IMG/VR virus record: IMGVR_UViG_2778261418_000018
Coordinates: 1-36,850 of that record
Strand: one strand, 5' to 3'
Source: a virus
Lineage: Duplodnaviria > Heunggongvirae > Uroviricota > Caudoviricetes
Length of the DNA stretch: 36,850 nucleotides
A program made the position numbers and the translations under genes. Below are positions 10,639 to 35,495 of this stretch, one piece after another (the first letter of the stretch is position 1; every line of letters starts with the position of its first letter). Under the pieces are notes generated by a model. It was not told the origin of the DNA. It did not search any database and saw nothing but the letters and a program-made list of their open reading frames with translations.

Positions 10639-10641
10639 ATT

Positions 10642-11166: not shown

Positions 11167-11171
11167 AAATT

Positions 11172-11191: not shown

Positions 11192-11194
11192 CTC

Positions 11195-11728: not shown

Positions 11729-11730
11729 CG

Positions 11731-13833: not shown

Positions 13834-13835
13834 GC

Positions 13836-15255: not shown

Positions 15256-15258
15256 GAT

Positions 15259-18533: not shown

Positions 18534-18535
18534 TG

Positions 18536-18736: not shown

Positions 18737-19239
18737 CAGCACAACTCCGCAAAGATTCGCGGGCGGCACAGAATGTCAGAGATGGCCCAGCTCACATCGC
18801 GCCACAAATCCGATGTCTGTATATCCAGTGCGTCCGCCCGGCGGTCGCCCTTGTCCGTTGTGTCCGCATCGCGGTAACGCTCCAGAATCAGGGCGCGTGT
18901 GGCGGTGTAAACCGCATTGCGCCAGTGCCAGAGATTGACGCTTTCTCCGTTAATTACGGGTGCCGGAACATCGGCCAGCGTCTGATGGCCAGCCGCCTGC
19001 TGTTCCTGCTGCCACGCTTCCAGCTCGCGGGTAACGTGTGCCACGGCCCCGGTGGCGGTATGCAGCAGGCGGGAGGTGGTCACACGGCCCGGCAGTCGTA
19101 TCGCCAGACGCAGTTCACGCAGCACAATATCCGGCCAGAATGCACCTGCTGAAATACGGGTATCACCATCATCGGTATCGGTGATGTCGTCCTCTGCGGG
19201 TCCGGGGTTGGTTCTGGCAACCATACTCATGGGGTTCAC
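18736..19239 (-). CDS. L: capsid completion protein L
   Basis: 167 aa, P2 L position. Confidence 0.75.
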   Translation of the reverse strand: MNPMSMVARTNPGPAEDDITDTDDGDTRISAGAFWPDIVLRELRLAIRLPGRVTTSRLLHTATGAVAHVTRELEAWQQEQQAAGHQTLADVPAPVINGESVNLWHWRNAVYTATRALILERYRDADTTDKGDRRADALDIQTSDLWRDVSWAISDILCRPRIFAELC

Positions 19240-19331
19240 TCCTGAAAAAATCGGGCGGTGGGTGCGCGGTGTAAACGGTCACGGAGTCAAACCGGAACAC
19301 CGCGCACGCCGCCCGCTGACGGGGTCAGTCG

Positions 19332-20132
19332 TTAACCGCGCTTCGCCTTCTGCGTCGCGGTGGTTTTTCGTGTTGCAGGCTTCCGCGTTGTCTTTTTACT
19401 TTTGCTGCTTTCGTCCTGCGCCTGCTGTGTGCTGGCGTCTTCTGGTGCGGCTGCGGAATCGGCTTTTTTCAGGGCGCGGGAAAGGGTTGCAATCTCGCGT
19501 TTCACACCTGCGTTCGGGTTCAGGTGCATTGCTTCGCGCAGCAGCTTCAGTGACAGGGCCATGCTGTCCGCATCACTCAGGCCACGGCGGACAAAGGCGC
19601 ACGCCTTGCATAATTTGGCGCGCACTTCGTCCGGCATGTCCTGGTCGGTGACAATCTCCCGGAGGGTGTCCAGTGGTTCGATAAAGGCGGACAAATCCGC
19701 GTCGGCATCCGTCCCGGCCTGCGTCAGTACCGGATTACAGATTTCTTCGGTCAGTACCGTGGCAGCAGTACGGCCAAAGTTATCCGGCATGATGAGGTTG
19801 TGACGGACCACATACGCGCCGATACGCAGCGCAAGCGGAAGATCGCCACAGTCAATCGCCCACACCATCAGCGTGGCAATCACTTCATCCTGCTGCCCGC
19901 CGTCAGCCTCCAGCGTTCCCTCAATCCAGCCGGAAAAATCCGGCAACAACTCTTTTTTGATGGCGGCTTTCGCGCTTCTGGCCTGTACGCCCTTAAGCCG
20001 GGCCTGTGCCAGACGCAGACGATACAGCACCTCTTCATGCGCGGTACGCGCGGCGTGGTCCACGCCTTCATTCGCCCGGCCTGCGCGCTGTGCCATCACG
20101 TTCTGCCAGTGTTGCTGTGCAGGAGTAATCAT
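19332..20132 (-). CDS. M: terminase small/endonuclease subunit M
   Basis: 266 aa, basic C-terminus, P2 M position. Confidence 0.8.
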   Translation of the reverse strand: MITPAQQHWQNVMAQRAGRANEGVDHAARTAHEEVLYRLRLAQARLKGVQARSAKAAIKKELLPDFSGWIEGTLEADGGQQDEVIATLMVWAIDCGDLPLALRIGAYVVRHNLIMPDNFGRTAATVLTEEICNPVLTQAGTDADADLSAFIEPLDTLREIVTDQDMPDEVRAKLCKACAFVRRGLSDADSMALSLKLLREAMHLNPNAGVKREIATLSRALKKADSAAAPEDASTQQAQDESSKSKKTTRKPATRKTTATQKAKRG

Positions 20133-20177
20133 TTGTTCTCTCCGTTACTGGCGGGCATGATGCCCGCCGTGAGTTGA

Positions 20178-21230
20178 TTAGCTGTCGGCGAACTTCAGGC
20201 CAGTGACCATCGCGCACTTGCCATAGTCTTCAACGACATAAGCGTCATTGATGGACTGGTAGGTGGCGATGCGGTTGTATTCCGGCTCGTCTTTCATCAG
20301 GCGACGCATTGAACCTTTCTGCCAGTAAATCGACAGGTTGTTGAACGAGGTGATCAGCATCGTTGCATCCGGGAAGAACGGCGCAAGGAACACGCCCAGC
20401 CCGCCAATGGTGCGCGATGACAGGATGAGCTGCCCGGCAAGTAATTCCGCATTGGGATTCTGGCCGCTGATGCTGTTCAGCACGGGCAGACGCAGCGAGT
20501 TAAACAGGTTGCGCCCCATAATCACCACAAGGTCGTCAGCTTCCTTGTGCCATTCATCCAGCAGGGATGAGTGTGCGTCCTGTACCAGTGCATCAGCGTT
20601 CGCATACTTACCCGCGTGCGCCACGGTGTTGTCCATGTTGCGGGAGGTCAGCGTCACGTCATTCATAACGCGTTCGCTGGCGTCGGTTCTGATGTGCTCC
20701 AGCCATCCCACGTTAACGTCCTGAAGCAGCTTGTTGGTGCTGAAGTTGGACTCATCCGCGTGAGACGTGCCGTTGAAACCGATCATGATGCGGTCAAGCG
20801 CCACCTGTCGGGCAATCTGTGCGCTGATGCGGGACTGAAAATCAGGATGTGCCGCCCAGGCATCAAGCTGCGGATATGAAATAAACGTGTCGTAGTTCAC
20901 CTGTTCGCACTGGTATTTGCGGTTTTTCAGATCAACCACGTTATTCGGGTTACGGCGTTTTGTGCCGTCATAACTGGTATTCGTGCGTGCAATTGGCCCG
21001 GTGGTGTCCAGGAGGATTTTTTCGCCTTTCTGGTCGGTCACGCCGATCACGTTAATTCTTTTTGTAAATTCGGTGCTTTCCTTTGAGGCGTTTTCAAAAC
21101 GCTGCTGCACCGAGGGTTCCACGGTAAATCGCGATACCAGTGCGGAAACCGGGATATTGTTAAGCGACGCCTGCTGCGCCATATAGCAACCCAGCTTGTT
21201 GCGGGTAATATCTGACATCACCAGATTCAT
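20178..21230 (-). CDS. N: major capsid protein N
   Basis: 350 aa; recalled P2 N similarity (FTVEPSV...VVEDY). Confidence 0.85.
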   Translation of the reverse strand: MNLVMSDITRNKLGCYMAQQASLNNIPVSALVSRFTVEPSVQQRFENASKESTEFTKRINVIGVTDQKGEKILLDTTGPIARTNTSYDGTKRRNPNNVVDLKNRKYQCEQVNYDTFISYPQLDAWAAHPDFQSRISAQIARQVALDRIMIGFNGTSHADESNFSTNKLLQDVNVGWLEHIRTDASERVMNDVTLTSRNMDNTVAHAGKYANADALVQDAHSSLLDEWHKEADDLVVIMGRNLFNSLRLPVLNSISGQNPNAELLAGQLILSSRTIGGLGVFLAPFFPDATMLITSFNNLSIYWQKGSMRRLMKDEPEYNRIATYQSINDAYVVEDYGKCAMVTGLKFADS

Positions 21231-21253
21231 AAAAAATTTGCTCCTTTGTCTTA

Positions 21254-22090
21254 TCAGAAGTCAGCCAGCTGGTCGGAGGCTGCGCCCGTTGCGGTGAAGC
21301 GGTTCTGCGGATCGCCGTCCTGCGTGCGCAGTTTTTCCTTCAGTGCTGTCAGCTCTGTGGTCAGTGACGTGATTTTCTGGCGGTCCTGCTGATGGCGGGT
21401 TTCCAGCACATTAAAACGGTCGATAATGTCGGCCTGTGACGTTGCGACGCCTTCCACCGCTTCCTGAATACGGGAAAAACTGGCGTCATCCGCTTTGCGG
21501 CCACGGCCAATAATCCCCATTACGCGGTTAAACCACTGGGTGCCTTCTTCCTGGCGTTGTTCTGCCATTTCGATGATTTCAGACTCGATGGCTTCGGAGA
21601 TAAGCGGCGCTTCACCCTGGACACTGTTGAACGTCATTACCGCCTGACGTTGCTGTGCCGTGAATTTCAGGCGCTCAGTGCCCAGGCTTGCCGGGGTGTC
21701 GGTCATCGCCAGCCCGACCAGGTAGGCGCGCCCGTTAACGGAGAACTGCGGGTGCAGTTCGATACTGGAATAGATTTTCTTGCCGTCCGCGACAAGCTGC
21801 TTCATGCGCTCGGTCGGTTCGATTTCTGCATACAGCGCAGTACGTCCGGCCAGCGGACCTTCCGTAATGTCTTCCGTACTCAGTGCGGTGACATCGCCCA
21901 TTGCGGAAAATTCGCTTGACGGGCATGGCGAGAGATAGTGCTCAACGTTCACGCGGGCAGCGTAAACATCCGGGTTGAAGTTCTCGGCGGCTTCACGCAG
22001 ATGCACCGGACTGATTTCACGGCCATCAACAGTTGATCCGGAGACAGCCACGCGAAACTTTTTGCGGGATGTCTTTTTTTCATTAGCCAT
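21254..22090 (-). CDS. O: capsid scaffold protein O
   Basis: Start moved to ATG at 22090 (MANEKK) with RBS GAGGGG; P2 O-like. Confidence 0.8.
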   Translation of the reverse strand: MANEKKTSRKKFRVAVSGSTVDGREISPVHLREAAENFNPDVYAARVNVEHYLSPCPSSEFSAMGDVTALSTEDITEGPLAGRTALYAEIEPTERMKQLVADGKKIYSSIELHPQFSVNGRAYLVGLAMTDTPASLGTERLKFTAQQRQAVMTFNSVQGEAPLISEAIESEIIEMAEQRQEEGTQWFNRVMGIIGRGRKADDASFSRIQEAVEGVATSQADIIDRFNVLETRHQQDRQKITSLTTELTALKEKLRTQDGDPQNRFTATGAASDQLADF

Positions 22091-22244
22091 AGTTTTTGCC
22101 CCTCTGACTGGTTCTTCAGTCATGATGGCAAAGCGTAACAGGCTGATACAAAGGGCTTTTGTTGTAAGAAAACGGCCAGAACAGGGGGTTAAGGAGAACA
22201 GTTTCGCGCGCGGGTAATCTTCCTGTAATTACTCAGGGGGAGCA

Positions 22245-23996
22245 ATGATTCAGGACGCTTTTGTGCGCCAGCGTGCGCGGCAACTTTACTGGCAGGGTTA
22301 TCCGCCCGCAGAAATATCACGTCTGATGGGAATAAACCCGAACACGATTTATGCGTGGAAAAAACGCGACCAGTGGGATGAAACGCCACCCGTGCAGCGT
22401 GTCACGCAGTCCATCGATGCGCGCCTCATCCAGCTTACTGAAAAACAGAATAAAACAGGCGGTGACTTTAAGGAAATAGACCTGCTGACCCGGCAGCTTA
22501 AAAAACTGCATGATGGCCAGCCGGATGCGACGGTCACAGGAAAGAAAGGCCGGGCGAAAAAACTCAAAAATCATTTCACGCCGGAACAGATTGCCGCACT
22601 GCGGGAAAAAATCATCAGCAGGCTGGAGTGGCATCAGCGGGGCTGGTTTGACTCCCTGACCCTTTGCAGGGAAGCCGGGATACGTAACAGGATGATCCTG
22701 AAATCCCGACAGATTGGGGCGACCTGGTATTTTGCACAGGAAGCACTGCTGATGGCGCTGCGTGACGATGTGGCGCAACCTTACCAGCGTAACCAGATTT
22801 TTTTGTCTGCGTCGCGTCGTCAGGCGTTCCAGTTTAAAAGCATTATTCAGAAGGCTGCGGCTGAAGTTGATGTGGAGTTGAAAGGGGGTGATAAAATCAT
22901 CCTCTCCAACGGCGCAGAGCTGCATTTTCTCGGCACTTCTGCTGCGTCGGCACAGTCCTATACGGGCAATTTTTATTTTGATGAATTTTTCTGGGTCAGT
23001 CGCTTTGCTGAACTGCGCAAGGTGGCTGGCGCTATGGCAACCCTCAGCGGACTGCGGCGCACCTACTTCTCCACGCCATCCACCGAAACGCACGAGGCAT
23101 ACGCCTACTGGAACGGCGACCGCTGGAACGAGAAAAAGGCCACGCATAAACGCCAGCGTTTTTCTGTGGACTGGAAAACGCTGCATAACGGGCTTATCTG
23201 CCCTGACCGGACGTGGCGGCAAATTGTCACGCTGGAAGATGTGGTTAATCACGGCTGGAAACACACCGATATTGATGAAATTCGTGATGAAAACACCGAA
23301 GACGAGTTCCTCAATCTCTATATGTGTGAGTTTGTCCGCGAAGGGGAATCGGCATTTAACCTGAATATCCTGATTGGCTGCGGCGTTGACGGATACGACG
23401 ACTGGAAAGACTGGAAACCTTTTGCTCCCCGCCCGATGGGAAATCGTCCGGTATGGATTGGGTATGACGCAAACGGCAGCAGTGGCAACGGCGACAGCGG
23501 CGCTGTGTCCGTGGTGGTTCCTCCGGCTGTTCCTGGTGGCCGTTTTCGAACGGTTGAGACGCGACGCGTTCAGGGGCTGGAGTTTGAAGAACAGGCCAGA
23601 GTCATTGAAGAGTTCACGTATCGCTACAACGTGGAACACATCGGCATTGATGTGACGGGCGGGAACGGGGAGGCTGTTTATCAGATAGTGAAACGGTTTT
23701 TCCCTGCAGCTATTCCGTACACCTTCACGCTGTCATCAAAACGGTCGCTGGTACTGAAAATGCTGCAAATAATGCGTGCCGGGCGGTGGGAATACGATCG
23801 CGCCGAACGCGAGCTGGTCGCGGCCTTTAACGCCGTGCGTAAGGTGAAAACACCGGGCGGCTTTATCACTTACGAAACGGACCGCGCGAGGGGGATCAGC
23901 CACGGCGACCTTGCGTGGGCAACCATGCTTGCTGTCATTAACGAACCAATTGGCGGCGAAGGAGAAAACGAGCGTTTCACGGTTATGGAGTTCTGA
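22245..23996 (+). CDS. P: terminase large (ATPase) subunit P
   Basis: 583 aa, divergent from O as in P2. Confidence 0.85.
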   Translation: MIQDAFVRQRARQLYWQGYPPAEISRLMGINPNTIYAWKKRDQWDETPPVQRVTQSIDARLIQLTEKQNKTGGDFKEIDLLTRQLKKLHDGQPDATVTGKKGRAKKLKNHFTPEQIAALREKIISRLEWHQRGWFDSLTLCREAGIRNRMILKSRQIGATWYFAQEALLMALRDDVAQPYQRNQIFLSASRRQAFQFKSIIQKAAAEVDVELKGGDKIILSNGAELHFLGTSAASAQSYTGNFYFDEFFWVSRFAELRKVAGAMATLSGLRRTYFSTPSTETHEAYAYWNGDRWNEKKATHKRQRFSVDWKTLHNGLICPDRTWRQIVTLEDVVNHGWKHTDIDEIRDENTEDEFLNLYMCEFVREGESAFNLNILIGCGVDGYDDWKDWKPFAPRPMGNRPVWIGYDANGSSGNGDSGAVSVVVPPAVPGGRFRTVETRRVQGLEFEEQARVIEEFTYRYNVEHIGIDVTGGNGEAVYQIVKRFFPAAIPYTFTLSSKRSLVLKMLQIMRAGRWEYDRAERELVAAFNAVRKVKTPGGFITYETDRARGISHGDLAWATMLAVINEPIGGEGENERFTVMEF

Positions 23997-25042
23997 TGAG
24001 CAGAAAAAATAAAAAAGTGCGCATGAGTTCACGCATTGATCTCGCTGATGCGCTCAGGAAAGAATCATCGCTCAGTGCATTCACATTTGATGGTCCTTAT
24101 CGCCTGACCGGGCATGACCTGCTGGACAATATGTACTGTGCTGATAACGGGCGGTGGTATGAAACCCCGGTGGACTGGTACGGTCTGGCAAGAGCAGCCC
24201 GGCAAACGTCCTGGCATCAGTCTGCGCTTTACTTTAAGCGCAATGTATTACTCGGTTGCTACATCCCGCACCCGCTGCTTTCCCGGCAGGATTTCTCGGC
24301 GCTGGCGCTGGACTGGTTTGTGTTCGGTAACGCATTCCTTGAGCTTCGAAGCAATATGCTCGGCGAACCGCTTAAATTACGGCACGCACTGGCGAAATAC
24401 ATGCGACGCGGAAGCGATCTTGAATCATGGTGGTATGTGCAGGATGGCAAGGACGCGTTTCAGTTTCGCCCTGGCAAAGTGTGCCACCTGATGAATCCGG
24501 ACATTAACCAGGAAATTTACGGCATGCCGGAATATCTTGGCGCATTACTCTCGGCCAGCCTGTCTCATTCGGCGGACATGTTCAGAAAACTGTATTACGA
24601 CAATGGATCCCACGCCGGGTGCATCATCTACATCGGTGCAGCGCAGGTAAACCGCGAAAGCATGGACTCCCTGAAAGAAACGTTACAGGGGGCACGTGGT
24701 GGTGGTGCGTTTAAAAACGTGCTCATCCATGCGCCCAACGGGGGCAAAGAGGGGGTGCAAATTTTGCCGTTCCAGCAGATCACCGCAAAGGATGAGTTCA
24801 TGAATGTTAAGGCGGCATCCCGTGATGATGTGCTGGCTGCGCACCGCGTTCCGCCGCAACTGATGGGGGCGATGCCGGGCGAAAAAAGCGCGTTTGGTGA
24901 TGTGGAGAAGGCCGCGCGGGTTTACGCAATTAACGAGCTGATGCCCGTCATGGAGGCCATGAAGCACATCAATGACTGGCTTGGCGAAGAGGTGATCTGC
25001 TTTAACCCTTACGCACTGTTAGACACCCAGCCCACATCCTGA
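23996..25042 (+). CDS. Q: portal protein Q
   Basis: 348 aa, downstream of P, adjacent to cos region as in P2. Confidence 0.85.
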   Translation: MSRKNKKVRMSSRIDLADALRKESSLSAFTFDGPYRLTGHDLLDNMYCADNGRWYETPVDWYGLARAARQTSWHQSALYFKRNVLLGCYIPHPLLSRQDFSALALDWFVFGNAFLELRSNMLGEPLKLRHALAKYMRRGSDLESWWYVQDGKDAFQFRPGKVCHLMNPDINQEIYGMPEYLGALLSASLSHSADMFRKLYYDNGSHAGCIIYIGAAQVNRESMDSLKETLQGARGGGAFKNVLIHAPNGGKEGVQILPFQQITAKDEFMNVKAASRDDVLAAHRVPPQLMGAMPGEKSAFGDVEKAARVYAINELMPVMEAMKHINDWLGEEVICFNPYALLDTQPTS

Positions 25043-25069
25043 CGCGCTTCGCTTGTCTGCTGCTTCGCC

Positions 25070-25092
25070 GGGGCATAAAAAATTTATGCCCC
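25070..25092. repeat. perfect hairpin just downstream of Q
   Basis: GGGGCATAAA-AAA-TTTATGCCCC. Confidence 0.5.
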
Positions 25093-25465
25093 GACTCTCC
25101 AGCTCCTGTATCAATCAGATAATTTCACGACGCTTTCCTGCTTATTGCCATCATCGACAGTCAGACTCTTACGCAATCCCACCGCGTTGACTGCATGTTC
25201 TCGCCGTCTCAGTGCGATTTTGACGGCCTTACCTTTCACCCCATCAAATCAAAAGCCCTCACGTCTTTTTCACGCTCAGCGTGAGAAATACAGCCATTCT
25301 GTTGTGTCGCTGCGACATCGTTCAGGGGATGCTATTTACCCCCTGAAACGCGGGCTGTTCCCCCGTCACCTGCGCACAGGAAAAACGCGTTTTTTGTGCA
25401 CGCACGGATCCTTGACGGATCCAGCCGCCATGCGGGCCGGAAGGGCAAAAAGTCGTTCAAAAAAA

Positions 25466-25495
25466 TTGTGCAAATTTGTGCACTTTTGTGCAAAG
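25466..25495. repeat. three 10-bp-phased direct repeats TTGTGCA(A/C)
   Basis: ATTGTGCAAA / TTTGTGCACT / TTTGTGCAAA at 25466, 25476, 25486; a fourth TTGTGCAC at about 25394. Confidence 0.6.
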
Positions 25496-25498
25496 AAA

Positions 25499-25521
25499 TG
25501 CCCCTCAAATTGAGGGGCATT
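25499..25521 (-). terminator. hairpin terminator ending the A / ATPase / protease transcription unit
   Basis: ATGCCCCTCA-AAT-TGAGGGGCAT, followed on the minus strand by TTTCTTTG; 14 nt after the protease stop. Confidence 0.75.
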
Positions 25522-25534
25522 ATGTCTTGAAGGA

Positions 25535-27760
25535 TTACGAACGAATAGGAATTGATGTTTGCGGTTGAATTGGCACGAGCACCTGATTATAAGTACGTAA
25601 AATTTCGTTATACAGGTCTTGGTGCTTTGATGCCTTAATGGTAATTATAAGAGCATACTTGATTTTTTCTGCCTTATGGCTGGCTATGCTTGCACCGGCC
25701 TCACGAGCGTTATAATGAATGTCAAATACAGGATTTTTTAGAGTTGAACCTAGCATGTTCTTCGAATTATGTAAGACGGTCTCCCACTTGCCCATGTCAG
25801 AACGTCGCTCACTTTCAGTTGAATATTTGGCCAGTTCAAAGAATCCCTTGGTTTCAGCATTTTGTTTTCCGTCTTTGATTTTTGAATCATTTGGCCGGAA
25901 TGTCACTTCCAAACCAGCTTTTGTATAGGACGCTGGGTCTTGTGGATCAGTGGTTGTTGCATAACAGAAAGTTGCCGCTAAGTTTATTCTACCTTTCAAG
26001 CCACCTTCAGGTATTGGAAGAGAAGCGCGTAAGTATTTTCCTGGTTTCAATTCACCTTGGTAGACGATACGGGCAACACCATCAGGGCTGACTATAATGT
26101 CGTTCAAGTCTTCAGGCAGTTTTCCCCAGCCAACTTCTGTACAAGGATGATCAAGCTGTTTTGACGCATGAATTAACAAAGCTTTGATTGCTAGTAGGCT
26201 CAAATCGTTCCCTAAAATTGCCCGAACACCAACAGCTGCTCGTAAGGCGTAAGGAGAGGCAAAGCTTGTTCCTAGCTGGGGTATGATTACAGGCTTCTTA
26301 CCTTTACCTAAAACATGAAAGTACTCGTCTGTGTCACCACCAAACGCAACTAAATCCGGTTTCATCACGCCAGGACTTCTGCCTGGCCCAATGGCGCTAT
26401 ATGGTGCTCGTTTCCATTCCGTATCATTAACTGTATCACAAGCACCAACAGCAAGAGCATTAACGCAATCGGCTGGTACTTGAATTCTTGCATTACCAGA
26501 CTTGCGATCCATTTCTCCATTGTTGCCAACAGCAACAGTCATTAATGTTTCACCATCACTTAACAAATCATCAATAACGGAAGTCCATGCATGAACTTCC
26601 GTATCTTCAATTGGTAGGTCTGGACCTAAACTTAGATTGATAAACTGATACTGGCGAGACAACAATACCTCTTCAATAAAGCCCAAAGTTCGATATAGTT
26701 CCAGCGGATCTTCTTGGCAGGTCTTGTTGTCCAAAACTCTTAAGTTATCAATATAAGAGTATGGTCTTTTCGCTTCCGATTTATTACTTATTGGTCCAAA
26801 TAAAAAGGCTGAAGACACAGCTAAACCATGCTCTAAACCGTCTGGATCATCCTCTGCATGATCGTCCAAAACTCTATAGGATTTTAACCATGGCGATATA
26901 GCGTGCTCTGATGGTAAACCACCATCAAGAATCGCAACTTTTATTTCTGAAGATACGGGGCCCTCAGCAGGTAATTTACACTGAGCTAAAGGACCGTAGT
27001 TCCTTTGTATTGGTCTAATCCCACGCAATCTTGGAACCGGTCTTATTACTCGTACAAATGTAAATTTCGCAAGCTTACTAATAGTAATTCTATCGGCCTG
27101 GATTGGCACGAACCATAATGTACCAGCGGTAAAAGCTAATGAAGTATGTACTTTGATGTTCAAATTTGATGCAAACTGAACAAATTGTTGCTGAACCAAG
27201 TCTTGTTCATTATCTGGCAGTAAATGAACACCAACCTCAAAATACGAAGAATCCTGCTCACCAATGGTAATAATACGCTCTTCGGGTAAATAGGCATCGA
27301 ACCGTTCTATGCGTGCAAAATCAATCGCTTCGTCAGAAAACTCTTTGAGTCCTGACACCCAATGAGGTAACTCTTTGAAGGATTCTCTTTTACCAGCAAC
27401 AAACATTTGTGTCGTAGTTACTTCTGACACAGTAACTTTTCGCTTCCAGCTTTGAGGCGTAATTTTTACCGTCCTGCTGCCAATAGACGTTAACCCGGTA
27501 GACTTAAGCATTTTTGCAGGAAAAAAAGAGCGTGCAATATAGCTTGGATTCAACGTCAACTTAGCCACAGCATAATCATAAGGACATGCCTGACTGGGTA
27601 AATCATCAAAATTTTCTATAGTAGATGCAATTTGCGGCAATAAACGTTGTTTCGATTCGTAAAGAGAATAAACCTCAGCTTTTCCGGGCACTCTTTTAGG
27701 ACCAGGAATATCGCTGGTTAATAATTCGCCGCGTCCAATCAGAAAATTAGTTTTCGCCAT
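25535..27760 (-). CDS. S8 family subtilisin-like serine peptidase with large N- and C-terminal extensions (candidate IetS-like)
   Basis: Catalytic motifs in order VAILDGG (Asp), HGLAVSS (His), AVGNNGE (oxyanion Asn), GTSFASP (Ser); RBS AGGAG 8 nt before ATG. Confidence 0.8.
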   Translation of the reverse strand: MAKTNFLIGRGELLTSDIPGPKRVPGKAEVYSLYESKQRLLPQIASTIENFDDLPSQACPYDYAVAKLTLNPSYIARSFFPAKMLKSTGLTSIGSRTVKITPQSWKRKVTVSEVTTTQMFVAGKRESFKELPHWVSGLKEFSDEAIDFARIERFDAYLPEERIITIGEQDSSYFEVGVHLLPDNEQDLVQQQFVQFASNLNIKVHTSLAFTAGTLWFVPIQADRITISKLAKFTFVRVIRPVPRLRGIRPIQRNYGPLAQCKLPAEGPVSSEIKVAILDGGLPSEHAISPWLKSYRVLDDHAEDDPDGLEHGLAVSSAFLFGPISNKSEAKRPYSYIDNLRVLDNKTCQEDPLELYRTLGFIEEVLLSRQYQFINLSLGPDLPIEDTEVHAWTSVIDDLLSDGETLMTVAVGNNGEMDRKSGNARIQVPADCVNALAVGACDTVNDTEWKRAPYSAIGPGRSPGVMKPDLVAFGGDTDEYFHVLGKGKKPVIIPQLGTSFASPYALRAAVGVRAILGNDLSLLAIKALLIHASKQLDHPCTEVGWGKLPEDLNDIIVSPDGVARIVYQGELKPGKYLRASLPIPEGGLKGRINLAATFCYATTTDPQDPASYTKAGLEVTFRPNDSKIKDGKQNAETKGFFELAKYSTESERRSDMGKWETVLHNSKNMLGSTLKNPVFDIHYNAREAGASIASHKAEKIKYALIITIKASKHQDLYNEILRTYNQVLVPIQPQTSIPIRS

Positions 27761-27783
27761 ACATACTCCTTATCTATGCTGTA

Positions 27784-28905
27784 TTACATTTTTTGACTGT
27801 ATTTTCTAATTGTATCCCTACTGACTCCGGTTAAGTCTGATATGGCATGCTGGGATAATTTAGAATTTCTTTTTAGAGTAACTGCAATTTCTTTACGTTC
27901 ATTCCTGTCTAATTCTGATAAACCATCTTTAATGAACGACCCAATCAACTCTTCATCTGAGGAAATACCTAAAGCGACCGAACGTCGGAATTTGTTGATA
28001 GAACGCTCAATATTACTAAAAGATTCATTTTTGAACATAATAGCCAGTAGATCTATCCAACGTGCAAAAATCGCGTAGTCGGGACCCGAAAAGCGTTTAA
28101 TTGCTTCTTTAATACTTTCGCTATCTGGCTTCTCAAAATTGAGCACTAAATCAAAACGTCTCCATAGTGCTGGATCAATCAACTCAGCGAAGTTAGTTGC
28201 AGCAAGTAGCAAACTAGAAGACGGCCATTCGTCAACCTCCTGGAGTATCACGGTAACAAGTCTTTTTAATTCTCCAACATCAGAATCATCACTTCTCTTT
28301 TTGGCGATTGAATCAATTTCATCTAACAGAAGAACGCACGGCCCTTTCTTCGCAAAATCTAGAGCTGCCCGAAGGTTATTTCCGCTTTTGCCCAGATAGC
28401 TGCTCATTACTGCCGTTAAATCAAGAACGTAAAAAGGAACCCCTAATTTCTGAGCTAACCAGCTTGCCGTAAGTGTTTTACCTACACCCGGAGGGCCAAC
28501 AAAAATGGCAGAGCGTGTTGGTTGTAAGCCGAGAGTCTTGAGGCGATCGATGTGCTTCCGCTCAAGAATAATTTGATCCAGTGAGTCTTCTATCTGACTG
28601 GACAGTAGAGGTTTGCTCACAATCTTTTCATTTGGTGCTTTAAGCAAGGTAAGCCTTGACTCCTCGTCCACAGGCATGGTTTGAGGCAGCGCTTGTTTTG
28701 GTGCGGTAACCTTACGCAGGCTTTGTGCAGGCTTTTGCGGTTTATTTCGTAGATAAAGATCAAGCTGCTCGGATAGAGCAGGCATAGTTTCCCGATATTT
28801 ACGCACCAAGCGAGCGACATATAACCGAACGTCATCATACTGTTCAGTTATTACCAGTCTAACTAGTTGGGCTAAATCTGACTGAATACCACCTAAGTCG
28901 CCCAT
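27784..28905 (-). CDS. AAA+ ATPase (classic clade) with possible C-terminal HTH (candidate IetA-like)
   Basis: Walker A GPPGVGKT, Walker B VLLLDEID, sensor-1 LLLAATN, RRFD; C-terminal LSQHAISDLTGVSRDTIRKY. Confidence 0.8.
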   Translation of the reverse strand: MGDLGGIQSDLAQLVRLVITEQYDDVRLYVARLVRKYRETMPALSEQLDLYLRNKPQKPAQSLRKVTAPKQALPQTMPVDEESRLTLLKAPNEKIVSKPLLSSQIEDSLDQIILERKHIDRLKTLGLQPTRSAIFVGPPGVGKTLTASWLAQKLGVPFYVLDLTAVMSSYLGKSGNNLRAALDFAKKGPCVLLLDEIDSIAKKRSDDSDVGELKRLVTVILQEVDEWPSSSLLLAATNFAELIDPALWRRFDLVLNFEKPDSESIKEAIKRFSGPDYAIFARWIDLLAIMFKNESFSNIERSINKFRRSVALGISSDEELIGSFIKDGLSELDRNERKEIAVTLKRNSKLSQHAISDLTGVSRDTIRKYSQKM

Positions 28906-28949
28906 CTTAACTGTAACCTCTTGATTTTAAGTGAATTGAAAAAGCATTT

Positions 28950-28990
28950 AACTGGACTATTTATAGTATTGCACTTTTTTATCAAACAGG
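28950..28990 (-). promoter_or_regulatory. putative sigma-70 promoter for the cargo cassette
   Basis: Minus strand TTGATA - ~15 nt - ATAAAT inside a 180-bp AT-rich spacer between A stop and the ATPase start. Confidence 0.3.
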
Positions 28991-29085
28991 GAAGAGGAAT
29001 ACTATATGAAATTACAGTGTGCCCCATGGAACGTCCTTACCATGTCTAAACTCTACCTTCATACAATTGATGATTTCTTTCTTGG

Positions 29086-31869
29086 TTATTTTTTCTTCTC
29101 GCTATTGCCTTTGTCCTGCAACAGACCCGCCTTGTGACGTGCGCGTTCAGTGGTTTCATTGATTCTCTGTGCGTGCTCTGCGTCACGGATGGCGCGCAGC
29201 ATGTCAGAAAGCACGGTAACGGGGGGGTTCATGGTGTTCTGGTCCTGCTGAAGTGTGGATACCAGGCGTGCGGCGGCTTCGGGGTCTGATGCCCCCAGCT
29301 GTTCCAGATAGCTGGCGACCGGGTTATGGCGGATCTCCGTGCTGCTTACGCCGTGATTACGGCTCAGGCGCTGCCAGAGCTGCGTGATTCGGCTGTCCGG
29401 GCGGGTATCCGGTTTGCGTACAATTTCAAATCCCTGCGGTGCAATGATGCTGCCGTCAACGTACAGGCTGCCGCCCCGTAACAGGTGCTGCATCTGCTGT
29501 TCACCGATATGCAGGCCGAGAGATTCAGCAGATTCCCGCCATTCTTTAGCGAGTAATTCGTGGCTATCAGGCAAAGGCCGCTGCTGTTTGCGGCTCTGTG
29601 TCCAGCTCTGCATTTCATCACTGCTGTTTTTTGCCTGTTTGTCACGCAGCGAACGCATCAGCGCCCGGCGTTCGTGCCGTTTCAGTGAGCGCATCCATTC
29701 ATCCACATCAACGCCGTCAGGAAGCTGCGGCCACGGTGCTGGCCGTTCTTCCGGCTGTTCTGTCCCGTTGTTGTCCGTTTCCTGTACACGGGGACAGTTA
29801 TTGCCACGAGTCCAAGGGGCGGCAGGGCCGCCCTGAAGGTCAAAACCATTTTCGCGGGCGCTGTCTTCCGCTTCCGGTTTACGTCTTACCAGCTTCCAGT
29901 TATCCGGATGTGTGCACACACGGGAAGACTCCCCGATGAGTGGTGACCAGATCCCGTAAATCTGTACGCTCTGTTCGCCGTAATCGTTCAGCTCATCTGC
30001 GAGGTCGTAGGCGGTGCGAATCAGGTAGTCTTTGCGTGGAACAAGTACGCCGCCCTGTTTTTCAATGTAGGAGGCAAAACACCCGGCATCAGCGGCAGCG
30101 AGCACTGCATCCATTGCGTCATCCTTCAGCCGTTGCGGGCCTTCCGGGTTGCGTGCCATCTGGCTGGCAAGGCGGCGCAGTTCACGCCACACCTGACGGG
30201 AGGGGATGCCAAAGAACTGGAACTGGCGGACCCGGTGAAGGCGCGCCCAGCCGATGGCGCGCTCCACGCTCTCGGCCATTGATTTTCCGGTTTCGTGGTC
30301 AACGCGTGGCTTGCCCGTTTTCGGGTCGATACCATCCACGGCGCGGCTGTCCAGGTTCTTTCCGATGTAGGTGGCGATGTAGCTGGTTGGCGTGCCTTTT
30401 GAGCCGTCGACGTACTCCGCTTTAAAACGCGGAGTTATGTCATCGCCCAGCTCGTGGCGGTCTTCCTGAATGGCAATATCGCAGACGTGGGACACGATGG
30501 TTTCAATCTCGTCCGGATGTGCAAAGACCATCATATGCCAGTGCACAGTGCCGTCATGGTGAGGCTCCACCGTGCGGATGCCATACCAGCGAAGACCGTC
30601 GCGGTTCAGTTTTTTGCGGACCGCCGCAAAAAACGTGTTAACCAGGTAATCGCTGGAGTCGCGCATGGTGGCCCCGTTCCATTTGGGATTCGGATGACCG
30701 TTCTCCGTTGTTGCGTGGTATTTTGACGGGCAGGTGACAGTCAGAAACACCGCTCTGTCGCCACGGGCTTCGGCCTGAAGTTCCAGCCCCTTCATGGTGG
30801 CCATCATTTCTGCCTTACGGTGAACCGGGTTACTTACTCCCGCGTAATACACTGTATCGAGATCAATCGTGAACCCGTCTTCGTTTTCCAGCATGAAACT
30901 TTTCAGGAAATCGCGTGTTTTCTCGCGCTGTGCGCGAAACTCGCTTAACGCGTCCTGGCTCAGATAGGGCGATGTTTTTCTGGAAACCAGACAGGCGGCG
31001 CGGAGTTGTTCTTCTCTCCACTTGCAACGTAACAGCCACAGTTTGCGTTTCCACCATTCTGCACAGGTCAGGCGAAGGATTGCGCCCGGCAGCAGCTCCG
31101 TGTCCGGTTCGTTCCTCCGGTCTTTGTCTGTTGTCAGTGCGTCATAATGCGGAGGCATGGCGTGCAGGTGTAACGCCATGCGGGCCAGCATCTGATACGC
31201 CTTCAGCGTTACATCCATGGTCAGCTCGCCATCAGTCGCGCCAAAGCCATCGCAGAGTTTTTCGAAGGTGCTGCTGAACATCGCCGCCGTCATGGTGGCC
31301 AGCGTCTGTATCTGGTGTTTGTTGAGCTGCGGCAGGTAAAGCAAATCATCCAGGCGTTCGCGTCCGGCAAGGGAGCGATAACCCGGTGTCAGCCAGCGGT
31401 GGTCGGTGCGGTCCAGACGTTCGAATATTTTGCGCAGGGTTCCGCGCGCGTAGCGTTCAGCCTGCCAGCTCTTTTTGCCTTTCTGACGATCGGCTTCCTG
31501 CTTCTTGCGCAGAAAAGAGAGGTGGCGGCTCAGAGGTTCACGCAGATAAACGGGAAGCACCTTCAGTGTGGCAAAAGCACGGGCCACCGGGTCTTGTTCT
31601 GTTGCCTGACGCTTGCTGATGATGCTTTGTGTCAGCTTTTCACGCTGTCCGGCTTCCTCAAGGGATGCCATGAGTTTTTTACCCACGGTGGATTGTGCGA
31701 AAAAGGCTTCCTCCTTCGCTTCCTGTTCTTCCAGGGCCTTTTTGTCTGCTTCAAGGTAGTAACGGATGGCGCGTTGCATGTCGGTTTCAGTTTCCTGCCT
31801 GCGCTCCGTAAATCTGGCCGGATCAATGGCTGGCCGTGGTTCATTCCAGCTCCATGCAAACTCACTCAT
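29086..31869 (-). CDS. A: replication initiation endonuclease A (rolling-circle)
   Basis: Large basic protein in the P2 A position; start at ATG 31869 overlapping upstream stop (ATGA). Confidence 0.8.
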   Translation of the reverse strand: MSEFAWSWNEPRPAIDPARFTERRQETETDMQRAIRYYLEADKKALEEQEAKEEAFFAQSTVGKKLMASLEEAGQREKLTQSIISKRQATEQDPVARAFATLKVLPVYLREPLSRHLSFLRKKQEADRQKGKKSWQAERYARGTLRKIFERLDRTDHRWLTPGYRSLAGRERLDDLLYLPQLNKHQIQTLATMTAAMFSSTFEKLCDGFGATDGELTMDVTLKAYQMLARMALHLHAMPPHYDALTTDKDRRNEPDTELLPGAILRLTCAEWWKRKLWLLRCKWREEQLRAACLVSRKTSPYLSQDALSEFRAQREKTRDFLKSFMLENEDGFTIDLDTVYYAGVSNPVHRKAEMMATMKGLELQAEARGDRAVFLTVTCPSKYHATTENGHPNPKWNGATMRDSSDYLVNTFFAAVRKKLNRDGLRWYGIRTVEPHHDGTVHWHMMVFAHPDEIETIVSHVCDIAIQEDRHELGDDITPRFKAEYVDGSKGTPTSYIATYIGKNLDSRAVDGIDPKTGKPRVDHETGKSMAESVERAIGWARLHRVRQFQFFGIPSRQVWRELRRLASQMARNPEGPQRLKDDAMDAVLAAADAGCFASYIEKQGGVLVPRKDYLIRTAYDLADELNDYGEQSVQIYGIWSPLIGESSRVCTHPDNWKLVRRKPEAEDSARENGFDLQGGPAAPWTRGNNCPRVQETDNNGTEQPEERPAPWPQLPDGVDVDEWMRSLKRHERRALMRSLRDKQAKNSSDEMQSWTQSRKQQRPLPDSHELLAKEWRESAESLGLHIGEQQMQHLLRGGSLYVDGSIIAPQGFEIVRKPDTRPDSRITQLWQRLSRNHGVSSTEIRHNPVASYLEQLGASDPEAAARLVSTLQQDQNTMNPPVTVLSDMLRAIRDAEHAQRINETTERARHKAGLLQDKGNSEKKK

Positions 31870-32255
31870 GGCTGGTATCCCGTCACGTGCTGCCACTCCA
31901 GCGAGAAGAGGGTGGAAAGGCGGTTAAATTCAGCGGTGTATTCACTCAGCGAGGCACACCCGCCAGCAGTGCGATGCGCCAGCATTGCCGCAAATATGGA
32001 GGCCGGGGAGTCGTAATACGCCAGCAGTGATTCGCCGTGTGGTGTCAGGCAGTGCAACGCCAGCCCATGTGGTGTGAAGTCCACGCGGTAGCAGTCGTCT
32101 ACTGTGAAATAAAGGGTGTCTGCATTCTCCGGTTTTGTGGTGCGTGCTCTGTTGTCACGACCACGGATGTAGAGATCAAATAATCCCTGAAGAACGGGAG
32201 CCATACGGGTGTCCTGTGTGCGCACCCATCTTGTGAAGTCATGAGCGTCAATCAT
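31866..32255 (-). CDS. hypothetical early protein (129 aa)
   Basis: ORF translationally coupled to A. Confidence 0.5.
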   Translation of the reverse strand: MIDAHDFTRWVRTQDTRMAPVLQGLFDLYIRGRDNRARTTKPENADTLYFTVDDCYRVDFTPHGLALHCLTPHGESLLAYYDSPASIFAAMLAHRTAGGCASLSEYTAEFNRLSTLFSLEWQHVTGYQP

Positions 32256-34395: not shown

Positions 34396-34800
34396 ATGAA
34401 AAATGATATTGGTCAGCGGTTGCGTGAGGAAAGGGAAAGATTGGGACTTAGTCAAGTTGCTATGAGCGACATTGGTGGAGTCAAAAAGCTAACTCAGCTT
34501 AGATATGAGAAAGGAGATAGCTTTCCTGATGCTGCGTATTTGGCAGCGCTGTCTCGTTTTGGCCTTGATGTTCAGTATGTTGTGTTGGGAATTCACTCAC
34601 CTGAAACTTATAACGATGATGAGCAGGAGCTGATTACTCGCTTTCGAGCAGCTTCGTTAGATGTGAAAAACGCCGTGATCGGGGCTTTAAAAGGTGCGAT
34701 CAGTGAAAAGGAAACTCAGCCATCAGGACGTGAGTTAAATATTTCTGGTGGTAATAACCGTATCGCTGGTCGTGACTATAACGAAACTAAGGGTAGGTGA
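34396..34800 (+). CDS. immunity repressor, XRE/CI-type HTH
   Basis: IGQRLREERERLGLSQVAMSDIGGVKKLTQLRYEKG HTH; position upstream of int as for P2 C. Confidence 0.8.
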   Translation: MKNDIGQRLREERERLGLSQVAMSDIGGVKKLTQLRYEKGDSFPDAAYLAALSRFGLDVQYVVLGIHSPETYNDDEQELITRFRAASLDVKNAVIGALKGAISEKETQPSGRELNISGGNNRIAGRDYNETKGR

Positions 34801-34815: not shown

Positions 34816-35466
34816 ATGGCCGTCAACTCAAACGGTTCAAACAATCGCGTTGCTGGACGTGATTTTCACGAAAAGAATATTCAGATAGCGCGATATGATG
34901 GTTCTCATACCGTCAATATCGCAATCCCTTCGAATAATGATGATGACGATCGCCCTTTGCTTAAGGCTCAGCGTAAGGAGTTAAATAGCTTGGTTGCTGC
35001 TATTGCAGAAGCTAGCAATACTGAAGCGTTTATTATTTGGCAAAAAGTACATGCGGAGATTGGTGTAGCTGGTATTGATGATATGGCAGTAAATCAATAT
35101 AAAACAGCGGAGAGTTTTCTGCATGCAATGCTTGAGCGATGTAAAGATCATGATGCCTGTAAGACTCTTGTAAGTTTATTACTACGTAACAGTGAAGACT
35201 GTGGACTTCGACAAAAACTTCTGCGGTATTGCCATATCAATTTCGGTACAGGACGTTTAAACGATCTTACTCGTTCTCAGTTACAGTCTGCATTGTCGTG
35301 GTTAGAGCAACAATCGGTATCAAGCCATACAGAGAATTCGACCTTACCAGAAGTCCGACTTCGTGCTTCAGAATTAATCCGACTTTATCCAAAAGAAATA
35401 ATATTCTTTATCTGCGTAGGGGTTTTGGTAGGCGGTGCCATTTCTAGGGTGTTTTTTAATTTGTAA
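34816..35466 (+). CDS. membrane-anchored protein of unknown function (C-terminal TM helix), lysogenic-operon cargo
   Basis: 216 aa; C-terminus EIIFFICVGVLVGGAISRVFF; N-terminus repeats a motif from the repressor C-terminus. Confidence 0.6.
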   Translation: MAVNSNGSNNRVAGRDFHEKNIQIARYDGSHTVNIAIPSNNDDDDRPLLKAQRKELNSLVAAIAEASNTEAFIIWQKVHAEIGVAGIDDMAVNQYKTAESFLHAMLERCKDHDACKTLVSLLLRNSEDCGLRQKLLRYCHINFGTGRLNDLTRSQLQSALSWLEQQSVSSHTENSTLPEVRLRASELIRLYPKEIIFFICVGVLVGGAISRVFFNL

Positions 35467-35495
35467 TCTTACTTGAGCTAAATTGAGGTAATGAT

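Follow-up and report, generated by a model that had tools for sequence, protein, structure and literature searches.

IetAS was originally reported from pTiC58 as a toxin-antitoxin system for plasmid stability (Yamamoto et al., 2009; PMC13069673) and was later included in Gao et al. (2020) and PADLOC. It is encoded by two co-oriented genes, an AAA+ ATPase gene followed by an S8 subtilisin-like protease gene. IetS is the protease toxin and IetA the ATPase antitoxin, and defence needs the protease activity (PMC13069673); abortive infection is set off by a phage protein (bioRxiv 10.1101/2022.08.27.505566). In E. coli, the homologue SgiAT of Salmonella Genomic Island 1 (SGI1), which was cloned together with its putative promoter, functions as a toxin-antitoxin pair (PMC5006074). 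A related system, ietHAS (Liu-DS4; NAR 2026, PMC13069673), shares the IetA and IetS components but has a third gene, ietH, for an SNF2-type helicase. In E. coli, ietAS was reported in prophage regions by Wu et al., who found limited activity for most single systems tested, ietAS included (bioRxiv 10.1101/2022.08.21.504612).

The cos-adjacent gpA-gpQ interval was defined as a hotspot in P2-like phages (Rousset et al., 2022, Cell Host Microbe, PMC9122126; Moura de Sousa et al., 2026, NAR). Table S5A of Rousset et al. lists WP_000502620 and WP_001140702 ('AAA/HTH_50 + Peptidase_S8') at gpA-gpQ loci, and system 7 in their Table S5B, which occurs 400 times, is 'ietAS (Gao et al, 2020)'. P2 itself carries old and tin in this slot, lysogenic-conversion exclusion genes with their own transcript and a GC content of 34% (tin-old) versus 53% for P2 A.

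We analysed a 36,850-nt window from a P88-like (Xuanwuvirus) prophage of E. coli, a member of the P2 family. Its best explanation, to which we assign a probability of about 85% including the mechanism proposed below, is that a self-contained IetAS cassette serves as lysogenic-conversion cargo at the gpA-gpQ hotspot. The initial annotation had called the interval a recognised variable defence hotspot, and Rousset et al. (2022) bear this out, since they define gpA-gpQ and list the same protein pair: the copies of this cassette in E. coli EC5931 and UMNK88 are annotated with these two accessions. The initial reading is correct, and the occurrence of this gene pair at the hotspot is already on record. 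The locus shares the flanking genes, cos-adjacent position and variable content of the hotspot, but the host phage is P88-like and not P2 (Peduovirus), and the variable DNA begins within the last codons of gene A. Nothing that defines the IetAS family is different here, and the cassette is one sequence lineage among several: IetA of the P2-hotspot representative of Rousset et al. is 43% identical to the present one, and IetS of Enterobacter phage phiT5282H 38%. The cargo proteins are unrelated to those of P2 old/tin (PADLOC gave no Old match), and the orientation differs, with old-tin running from the cos side towards A and ietAS from the A side towards cos. SgiAT likewise lies on an integrated mobile element, but of a different type. 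There is neither room for nor trace of a third gene such as ietH.

Position and borders of the island

The interval contains the following features.

23996-25042, plus strand: portal gene Q, 348 aa, conserved and bordering the hotspot on the left (Pfam Phage_portal, 2.9e-17)
25043-25492, unstranded: conserved cos-region backbone, 51% GC, not cargo (homology to relatives)
25069-25093, plus strand: hairpin just 3' of Q with an 11-bp stem, GGGGCAUAAAA/UUUUAUGCCCC, part of the backbone (fold)
25352-25375, unstranded: block GGGCTGTTCCCCCGTCACCTGCGC, best cos-core candidate (alignment of six Peduoviridae)
25466-25492, unstranded: TTGTGCA three times, at a period of 10 bp; conservation ends with these repeats, which mark the hotspot's left border (sequence and alignment)
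25493-29114, minus strand: cargo island proper, 3622 bp, 41% GC (homology breakpoints and lowest-GC 3.6-kb stretch in the window)
29029-29114, minus strand: junction segment specific to this cargo type, comprising the last nine A codons, the stop codon and 57 bp of spacer (homology limits)
29086-31896, minus strand: replication gene A, 936 aa, conserved and bordering the hotspot on the right (Pfam Phage_GPA, 8.8e-129)

The initial annotation had placed the cargo at 25043-29085, in the cos-to-A slot where P2 has old/tin. The slot was correctly recognised, as a Phage_portal gene and a Phage_GPA gene flank the island and P2 has tin and old in the same interval. The extent needed revision: the island is real, but the left 450 bases are phage backbone and the right edge lies inside A. 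At both borders, homology to P88, PhiR44_2, Chuche and Shae_phiSM breaks off. On the left, homology to all relatives ended at 25492-25499, and P88-like phages, as well as 1142 of the 5426 complete E. coli genomes, matched the 25043-25492 segment at 92-98% identity. The TTGTGCA repeats were common to six aligned phages, which diverged directly after the third repeat, and were also present in the loci of an 85%-identical cassette variant. The block GGGCTGTTCCCCCGTCACCTGCGC, invariant in five of six compared Peduoviridae (Chuche lacked 7 of the bases), is the best, though unproven, candidate for the cos core; comparison of the cos region with that of P2 detected no significant DNA similarity. The hairpin downstream of Q (-22.2 kcal/mol, z -5.05) occupies the position of P2's annotated tQ terminator, inside the stretch conserved in the 1142 genomes.

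On the right, the variable DNA ended 29 bases inside the 3' end of A, and the C-terminal tail of A changed with each cargo type. The junction segment was shared neither with P88-type relatives, whose homology started at 29115, nor with the 85% variant, whose homology stopped at about 29028.

Composition of the island

The island had been described from visual inspection as markedly AT-rich, and calculation upheld this. The whole 25043-29085 interval had a GC content of 42.4%, made up of 51.0% in its conserved part (25043-25499) and a lower value in the island (41.2% for 25500-29114), against 53.8% for Q, 53.8% for P, 57.0% for A and 56.0% for 12501-25042. Among all 3615-bp windows of the 36.85 kb, the island was the GC minimum; 0.3% were equally low, and all of these overlapped it. 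The two cargo genes were similar (ietS 41.5%, ietA 42.1%), with GC3 values of 0.32 (ietS) and 0.36 (ietA) versus 0.58-0.69 in core structural genes. Codon usage also set the cargo apart from the core: Leu CTG made up 57% in the core versus 11% in the cargo, Leu TTA 6% versus 36%, and Arg AGA 6% versus 29%, and the distance to the pooled core reached z = 3.6 for ietS and z = 1.9 for ietA. The cassette has a foreign composition; it also brings a conserved regulatory block of its own at the 5' end and a hairpin of its own at the 3' end, both described below.

The ietA and ietS genes

27784-28905, minus strand: ietA, 373-aa classical-clade AAA+ ATPase with a C-terminal helix-turn-helix, antitoxin/regulator (PADLOC, Pfam)
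25535-27760, minus strand: ietS, 741-aa subtilisin-like S8 serine protease, toxin/effector (PADLOC, Pfam)

By its sequence, the cargo, to which the initial annotation had given no name, is an IetAS two-gene cassette: ietA comes first and ietS second, both on the minus strand, and no catalytic motif is lost. PADLOC matched IetA over residues 9-372 (1e-77) and IetS over residues 36-726 (2.9e-51), and Pfam detected AAA in the ietA product (2.6e-30) and Peptidase_S8 at residues 271-546 of the ietS product (2.5e-19). Both reading frames were intact and near full length relative to the family profiles. The nearest solved relatives of IetA are Cdc48/p97/VAT. Walker A (GPPGVGKT), Walker B (LLLDEID), a Y-L-G pore-loop-like motif and a C-terminal SRDTIRK were conserved in IetA; the Walker A/B, sensor and Arg motifs were invariant, as was the C-terminal HTH-like motif, which also occurs in the 43%-identical IetA mentioned above. 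A structure model showed a helical C-terminus at 334-372. In IetS, whose structure model was poor (pLDDT 54.8), D278, H310, S498 and N412 were invariant across 28 homologues; RefSeq WP_001140702 is the IetS annotated in relatives. Of 80 homologous loci, taken from different species, 78 had ietA directly upstream of ietS, and the other two were cut by contig ends.

Regulatory sequences of the cassette

28906-29085, minus strand: 180-bp spacer from the A stop codon to the ietA start codon, 33.3% GC
28915-28922, minus strand: Shine-Dalgarno sequence AAGAGGTT of ietA, invariant in seven variants
28953-29018, minus strand: conserved non-coding block ACTGTAA..ATATAG ... TGnnATACT ... TAGTCCA (invariant columns in seven variants)
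28956-28985, minus strand: promoter-like site TTGATA-18-AATAGT from a consensus scan (9/12 match, not above chance)
28962-29006, unstranded: inverted repeat with 15-nt arms, 87% complementary and 15 nt apart, core ATATAGTATT/AATACTATAA (sequence)
28965-28973, minus strand: best promoter candidate, extended -10-like TG-C-AATACT (TG at 28973-28972, hexamer at 28970-28965)
25497-25521, minus strand: intrinsic-terminator-like hairpin after ietS, part of the cassette, with an 11-bp stem and a 3-nt loop followed by UCUUUG (fold)

A 180-bp AT-rich spacer indeed precedes the island genes. The promoter-like hexamers noted in it fared less well: the TTGATA-18-AATAGT match lies on the correct strand, but such matches were at chance frequency in the region (7 found versus 7.9 expected in shuffles), and TTGATA was not conserved among relatives. 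Better support for an own promoter comes from the conserved regulatory block at the same place. These 66 nt upstream of ietA move together with the cassette. They were conserved in seven variants, the most divergent of which has 73% IetS identity, and between 85% variants they were conserved better than the coding sequence. Three of the seven variants are non-P2 islands in which the upstream gene is divergent, so that read-through would not be possible in those three. The TG and ATACT of the -10 candidate were invariant in all seven; its hexamer agrees with the consensus at 4/6 positions and has no conserved -35. We infer that TGcAATACT may be the promoter, with a transcript start near 28958. 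The block supports a promoter belonging to the cassette, and independent expression, as proposed by the initial annotation, is supported indirectly. Read-through from the early operon into ietA is also possible, because the spacer contained no terminator-like structure between A and ietA (fold z +1.03, no better than shuffles).

The inverted repeat brackets the -35 region and overlaps the -10 candidate. Its arms were conserved while the sequence between them varied, and its core TATAG/CTATA was kept in 6/7 variants; in the Morganella variant it was degenerate. A search of 80 more distant loci revealed no repeat common to them. The repeat is a possible operator.

A hairpin terminator with a 10-bp stem had been proposed at the end of the island. 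The hairpin is present, and its stem is 11 bp long. Its arms (25497-25507 and 25511-25521, AAUGCCCCUCA-AUU-UGAGGGGCAUU) start 14 nt past the ietS stop codon, and in a 62-nt context it folded at -25.3 kcal/mol (z = -6.3), with 0 of 200 shuffles folding as well. The consensus terminator scan did not list this hairpin, presumably because extending the stem to 11 pairs leaves a U-tract that narrowly misses the scan's requirement. The 85% variants had a hairpin that shares the CCCCTC/GAGGGG core but differs in its outer pairs; P88-type cargo lacked such a hairpin.

Distribution of the cassette

The interval was compared among related P2-like prophages. All ten sampled relatives had content other than ietAS in the slot, which in nine of them was parM/parR with small genes; here parMR is absent and ietAS fills the whole slot. 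The cassette was found in only 44 of the complete E. coli genomes, versus 1142 for the cos flank; in 43 it was at least 99.5% identical, and one genome had only 41% of it. The count of 44 against 1142 speaks against fixation of the cassette in P88-like prophages. Among relatives with the same cassette, the cassette was 99.5-99.8% identical where the flanks were 95-98.6% (Q 97.5-98.3%, A 95.7-97.7%). The 85%-identical variant lay inside a backbone of only 70-73% identity, and variants with 73-77% protein identity were carried by a P2-like prophage of Serratia as well as by non-P2 integrase/AlpA/Ash islands. The gpA-gpQ slot also holds ietAS in Salmonella, Serratia and Enterobacter phage phiT5282H. 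As judged from these comparisons, the cassette has been exchanged among P2-like backbones. Four lines of evidence, independent of one another, now back the horizontal acquisition that the initial annotation had deduced: codon usage and base composition, patchy presence, cassette identity exceeding flank identity, and the 85% variant in a 70-73% backbone together with variants in other elements.

Proposed mechanism and alternative explanations

Anti-phage activity, toxicity and lysogen expression of the cassette are extrapolated from homologues, some 36-50% identical to one another. In the lysogen, the operon would be transcribed from the extended -10-type promoter TGcAATACT, starting near 28958. 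IetA probably autoregulates this promoter, its C-terminal helix-turn-helix binding the inverted repeat that overlaps it; this contact is purely conjectural. Equally conjectural is the restraint of IetS by unfolding, in which IetA, as a Cdc48-like hexameric unfoldase with the pore-loop-like Y-L-G motif, would hold IetS inactive. A product of a superinfecting phage would disable or divert IetA, and the freed IetS would cleave host targets, so that growth would stop before the invader's cycle is completed. Sister lysogens and the resident prophage would be protected.

The cassette might instead be mainly an addiction/maintenance module acting by post-segregational killing, in place of the ParM/ParR partition module, rather than anti-phage immunity. 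The pTiC58 origin of IetAS points this way, as do the role reported for SgiAT, which is island maintenance and not phage defence (PMC5006074), and the occurrence of parM/parR next to A in nine of ten sampled relatives, a module that, as Rousset et al. suggest, may allow plasmid-like maintenance (PMC9122126). We consider this unlikely as the main role. Homologues have measured anti-phage, abortive-infection activity (PMC13069673; bioRxiv 10.1101/2022.08.27.505566), the slot is a documented defence hotspot (PMC9122126), SgiAT on a test plasmid did not cause post-segregational killing of the classical kind (PMC5006074), and an integrated prophage has little need of partition; moreover, defence and maintenance are not mutually exclusive.

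It is less probable still that ietAS form the distal end of the early (cox-B-A) operon and are expressed only upon induction or infection, remaining silent in the lysogen. Their location on A's strand, the terminator-free spacer and the chance frequency of consensus promoter matches would fit. However, the upstream block is kept in variants with a divergent neighbour, where it would have to drive expression, and is conserved above the coding sequence between 85% variants; a toxin-antitoxin pair requires steady antitoxin expression, and for the cargo that P2 has in this slot, separate transcript starts have been mapped. That the island is a decaying or inert remnant, AT-rich only from relaxed constraint, is hardly credible. 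The partial E. coli copy and an Enterobacter hormaechei copy interrupted by ISEc52 would fit, but here both frames are full length and every catalytic residue is retained, the cassette is nearly invariant in 43 genomes, and homologues 61-93% identical occur in 80 species of several phyla.

Identity of the cargo genes

By its sequence, the window is a P2-family E. coli prophage whose nearest relative is phage P88 (genus Xuanwuvirus). Alignment to P88 gave mostly 93-97% identity over 1344-25499 and 29115-31548, and was only partial in the tail-fibre region (about 9714-13100). The position of the cargo in the gpA-gpQ hotspot, the cos-adjacent interval of P2-like phages, was confirmed by Pfam matches to replication gene A (Phage_GPA) on one side and portal gene Q (Phage_portal) on the other. 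The genes concerned are the following.

23996-25042, plus strand, portal gene Q (Pfam Phage_portal)
27760..25535, minus strand, ietS, 741-aa S8 subtilisin-like protease (PADLOC IetS PDLC02197, 2.9e-51)
28905..27784, minus strand, ietA, 373-aa AAA+ ATPase (PADLOC IetA PDLC02196, 1e-77)
29086-31896, minus strand, replication gene A (Pfam Phage_GPA, 8.8e-129)

Judged by these profile matches, the cargo is a two-gene IetAS system. The IetA profile aligned residues 9-372 of 373 with profile positions 5-370 of 374, and Pfam AAA also matched (2.6e-30); the other PADLOC matches of the ATPase were weaker and of generic ATPase type (TRIP13, DolB and PDC-S01). The IetS profile covered residues 36-726, with Pfam Peptidase_S8 over 271-546. 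The two genes are co-oriented, with ietA followed by ietS after a 23-nt gap, and the ietA-first order was kept in 78 of 80 homologous loci. Only two genes lie between the stop codon of A and the terminator-like hairpin; the third gene of ietHAS, a SNF2-type helicase, is absent. No homology to the old/tin cargo of P2 was found; a PADLOC scan of both proteins gave no Old match.

The catalytic motifs of both proteins are intact. In IetS, D278, H310, S498 and the oxyanion residue N412 were invariant in 28 homologues, and the Asp-His-Ser triad is intact; the segments AILDGG, HGLAV and GTSFASP agree with the classical subtilase motifs. In IetA, Walker A (GPPGVGKT), Walker B (LLLDEID), sensor-1 and the Arg residues were invariant, and a Y-L-G pore-loop-like motif is present. 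The nearest solved relatives of IetA in a PDB sequence search were the Cdc48/p97/VAT unfoldases; the search found no structure of IetA or IetS, only generic subtilisins (E about 1e-4) besides Cdc48/p97. The C-terminus of IetA carries a helix-turn-helix-like motif, KLSQHAISDLTGVSRDTIRKY, which is one of the best-conserved segments of the family, was also found in a 43%-identical IetA, and is helical in the structure model.

An AlphaFold model of IetS built with 28 homologues was too poor to rely on (pLDDT 54.8, S8 core unresolved). In the PDB, only the pro-form subtilisin Tk-SP (3afg) matched it significantly; ACT/ferredoxin-like folds and a viral capsid protein matched less well (E about 0.002-0.02). 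The only confidently modelled part, residues 30-240 (about 210 residues), matched tandem ferredoxin/ACT-like folds weakly, a weak hint from the model that the N-terminal region may consist of propeptide-like modules.

Composition and boundaries of the island

The initial annotation had judged the island AT-rich by eye, and the computed values agree. The GC content of 25500-29114 is 41.2%, against 53.8% for each of Q and P and 57.0% for A, and no stretch of equal size in the window is lower. The 180-bp spacer between the stop codon of A and the ATPase start, also described as AT-rich, has 33.3% GC. The old-tin region of P2, in the same slot, is likewise poor in GC (34%, against 53% for P2 gene A). 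Codon usage was distinct as well. GC3 was 0.32 in the protease gene and 0.36 in the ATPase gene, versus 0.58-0.69 in the structural genes. Leucine was encoded by CTG in 57% of cases in the core and 11% in the cargo, and by TTA in 6% and 36%, respectively; for arginine, AGA accounted for 6% in the core and 29% in the cargo. The codon-usage distances were z = 3.6 for ietS and z = 1.9 for ietA. Thus, both GC and codon usage set the cargo apart from the rest of the prophage.

The proposed interval of 25043-29085, which fills the entire gap from Q to A, was right for the cargo genes but not for its left 450 bases. The segment 25043-25492 has 51% GC; P88-like phages and 1142 of the 5426 complete E. 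coli genomes share it at 92-98% conservation. We aligned this boundary in six phages that represent three genera of Peduoviridae. All six had TTGTGCA three times at a 10-bp period (25466-25492), and the sequences diverged directly after the third repeat, indicating that the terminator-like hairpin belongs to the cargo. On the right side, homology to the relatives restarted at 29115, 29 bases within gene A. The last 9-35 residues of protein A varied with the type of cargo, and three tails were seen: ...LLQDKGNSEKKK in the window, ...LLRGGLTSGNKKQTE... in parMR-type phages and ...SLLHRTR in a third type. These results indicated that cargo swaps recombine within the end of gene A, replacing its last 9-35 codons. 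From the two breakpoints, the cargo extends over 25493-29114.

The cargo borders a 450-bp conserved non-coding block, which holds the candidate cos sequence 25352-25375, invariant across three genera. This sequence was common to five of the six aligned phages, and phage Chuche lacked 7 of its bases. Comparison of the P2 cos region with 25043-25540 gave no significant similarity; placement of cos by homology to P2 was dropped, and its position is a candidate only. No Rfam RNA family was found in 24900-29300. The TTGTGCA repeats, at a spacing of exactly 10 bp, occur in P88-like phages, in the prophage type of E. coli CFSAN051542 and in Enterobacter phage phiT5282H. As a possible cos-region binding array for terminase or a host factor, they would fix the left edge of the hotspot. 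A second, smaller insertion point was noticed on the other side of cos from the cargo. In phage PhiR44_2 and in an O111:H8 prophage, the end of Q is followed, before the cos region, by an additional gene of 525 bp (5401-5925 of the PhiR44_2 locus and 5901-6425 of the O111:H8 prophage locus), at a site equivalent to window 25017-25039.

Candidate promoter, operator and terminator

A hairpin terminator with a 10-bp stem had been described at the end of the island, and a hairpin does follow ietS, with 11 pairs (arms 25497-25507 and 25511-25521). Its folding energy was -25.3 kcal/mol (z = -6.3), and none of the shuffled sequences folded as well. It is followed by UCUUUG. The site is a candidate intrinsic terminator, with a strong hairpin and a tail that is U-rich but short, and was not listed by the consensus scan.

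The promoter-like hexamers fared less well. TTGATA-18-AATAGT is present on the correct strand (28985..28956), but hits of this kind were no more frequent than in shuffled sequences and the -35 element TTGATA is not conserved. This single 9/12 consensus hit was therefore rejected as the main promoter evidence. We then turned to the non-coding DNA upstream of ietA in seven cassette variants, whose IetS identity ranged down to 73%. The alignment indicated that the block 28953-29018 moves with the cassette. ACTGTAA..ATATAG, TG-nn-ATACT, AA-TAGTCCA and the Shine-Dalgarno sequence AAGAGGTT were invariant in all seven. In three of the seven variants the upstream gene is divergent, so a promoter in those loci would have to lie in the block itself. 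The most plausible ietA promoter, as predicted from these sequences, is of the extended -10 type (TG-C-AATACT, 28973-28965) with a start near 28958, close to the 28950 suggested initially.

A 15-nt inverted repeat (28962-28976 and 28992-29006) overlaps the -10 candidate; its arms are conserved and the intervening spacer is variable. It would suit a putative operator for the helix-turn-helix of IetA. A shared inverted repeat upstream of ietA was also sought in 80 distant loci, which was not a clean test; no common sequence was found, and many of these loci had AT-rich palindromes upstream of ietA.

Independent expression of the cassette in the lysogen, as proposed initially, is plausible, and the conserved upstream block gives it the best indirect support. 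For the old-tin genes of P2, which occupy the same slot, separate transcript starts are annotated in the GenBank record. It is also possible that ietAS is co-transcribed with the early operon after induction, as the spacer between A and ietA contains no terminator (fold z +1.0).

Distribution and exchange of the cassette

The cassette DNA was found in 44 of 5426 complete E. coli genomes, so that about 0.8% carry IetAS on a P88-like prophage; in 43 of the 44 it was at least 99.5% identical. All the examined contexts of the E. coli cassette were in the same slot. The content of the hotspot varies and its flanks are conserved: the flank was present in 1142 genomes and the cassette in 44. We sampled ten relatives sharing the flank. 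In nine, parM/parR lay beside A, followed by differing small genes, an IS element or an ead/Ea22 gene, and the tenth had three unrelated genes on the opposite strand. Since the slot content differs among relatives, and GC and codon usage distinguish the cargo, the initial finding stands.

In three cassette-bearing genomes compared with the window, the cassette was 99.5-99.8% identical, the cos region 95.0-96.7% and gene A 95.7-97.7%. A cassette more alike than its flanks would be expected if it had spread recently by recombination between diverged backbones. Composition, slot polymorphism and this contrast in identity together support horizontal acquisition, which had been suggested from AT-richness and locus.

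More distant variants of the cassette were also found. An 85%-identical cassette occupied the same slot in a very different P2-like prophage, that of E. coli CFSAN051542, with a backbone of only 70-73% identity, and the same 85% variant occurred in a degraded prophage remnant of Enterobacter hormaechei. In Salmonella the slot held a 93% protein variant, in Serratia one of 76-77% and in Enterobacter phage phiT5282H one of 38%. Photorhabdus and Morganella had 73% variants, which lay in small islands with integrase, AlpA and Ash genes; the 73% variant of Proteus was on a short contig on which P2 genes were not detected. Among 80 species-representative loci from several phyla, only three had P2 genes nearby. 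These results indicated that the ietAS family is widely mobile and was captured by P2-like phages more than once.

The E. hormaechei record (NZ_CP077309.1, 'plasmid unnamed1', 607 kb) was considered as an independent non-phage context and ruled out by the presence of pfkA, cpxAR and gpA remnants, which mark a degraded P2-like prophage. The record contains the chromosomal genes pfkA, fieF and cpxPRA and is probably a chromosome fragment; its ietAS variant is interrupted by ISEc52. The islands of Photorhabdus akhurstii and Morganella morganii also carry Bro-N and antiterminator Q genes and resemble phage satellites. The AT-rich E. coli cassette may have come from such satellite-like islands of the low-GC Morganellaceae.

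Possible mode of action

Previous studies have shown that IetS is a protease toxin and IetA its ATPase antitoxin, and that defence needs the protease activity; inactive ietA could not be cloned, and the anti-phage mechanism was described as unknown (PMC13069673). In Bacillus, one IetAS works through abortive infection, which the expression of a single phage protein sets off (bioRxiv 10.1101/2022.08.27.505566). SgiAT, the homologue on SGI1, functions as a toxin-antitoxin pair in E. coli (PMC5006074), and E. coli ietAS has been reported in prophage regions (bioRxiv 10.1101/2022.08.21.504612). By analogy with these homologues, IetS and IetA of the window would be toxin and antitoxin, and the cassette would protect against phages.

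A lysogen would make IetA and IetS continuously. IetA, a predicted hexameric unfoldase-type ATPase, would restrain IetS and repress its own promoter. The product of an incoming phage would disable IetA, allowing IetS to cut cellular targets and abort the infection. The pair may instead, or in addition, mainly stabilize the prophage by addiction in place of ParM/ParR, a module that most relatives carry; the reported defence by homologues speaks for exclusion, and the two roles can coexist. A fuller scheme, in which IetA is a DNA-binding unfoldase whose helix-turn-helix binds the inverted repeat over its own extended -10 promoter and would thereby couple the antitoxin level to transcription, and in which the cassette of P88-like phages replaces ParM/ParR for both addiction and exclusion, is doubtful as a whole, and we would give it roughly one chance in five.

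Relation to published work

A hotspot at gpA-gpQ, with 1,650 gene arrangements among 18,150 loci, was defined in earlier work (Rousset et al. 2022, PMC9122126), and rapid swapping of defence systems there has been described (Moura de Sousa et al. 2026, PMC13586616). Table S5A of PMC9122126 includes 'AAA/HTH_50 + Peptidase_S8, WP_000502620 + WP_001140702', and these two accessions are annotated on the same cassette in E. coli EC5931 and UMNK88. Table S5B lists 'ietAS (Gao et al, 2020)' as system 7 with 400 occurrences; its representative is of a different lineage from the window cassette. The finding is thus correct, with the boundaries revised and the cargo interpretation supported, and earlier publications cover the type of system, the type of locus and the pairing of ietAS with the hotspot. 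Our modest additions are the precise cargo junctions (the third TTGTGCA repeat as left border, the final codons of gene A as right border), the cassette-borne regulatory block conserved in seven variants, and the invariant IetA helix-turn-helix. They could aid the study of the IetAS mechanism or of recombination at the P2 hotspot. The analysis also gives a correct annotation of a lysogenic-conversion locus, and the cassette may shape phage sensitivity and hence the outcome of phage therapy.

Other regions of the prophage

A second AT-rich accessory stretch (34816-35843) lies between an HTH repressor-like gene (34396-34800) and the integrase gene (35849 to the window end). It encodes two proteins, one of 216 aa that matched nothing in Pfam or PADLOC and one with DUF2511 (GC3 0.28-0.32). 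The stretch may represent a further small slot for cargo, namely the integrase-side hotspot that PMC13586616 mentions. The left end of the window (1-1343) had no similarity to P88 and contains an AT-rich 131-aa ORF at 880-1275 with no family match. A DNA invertase gene (8978-9595, Resolvase and HTH_7) adjoins alternative tail-fibre segments, and the orientation of 10427-12701 is opposite to that in phage P88, which would be expected of an invertible host-range switch.
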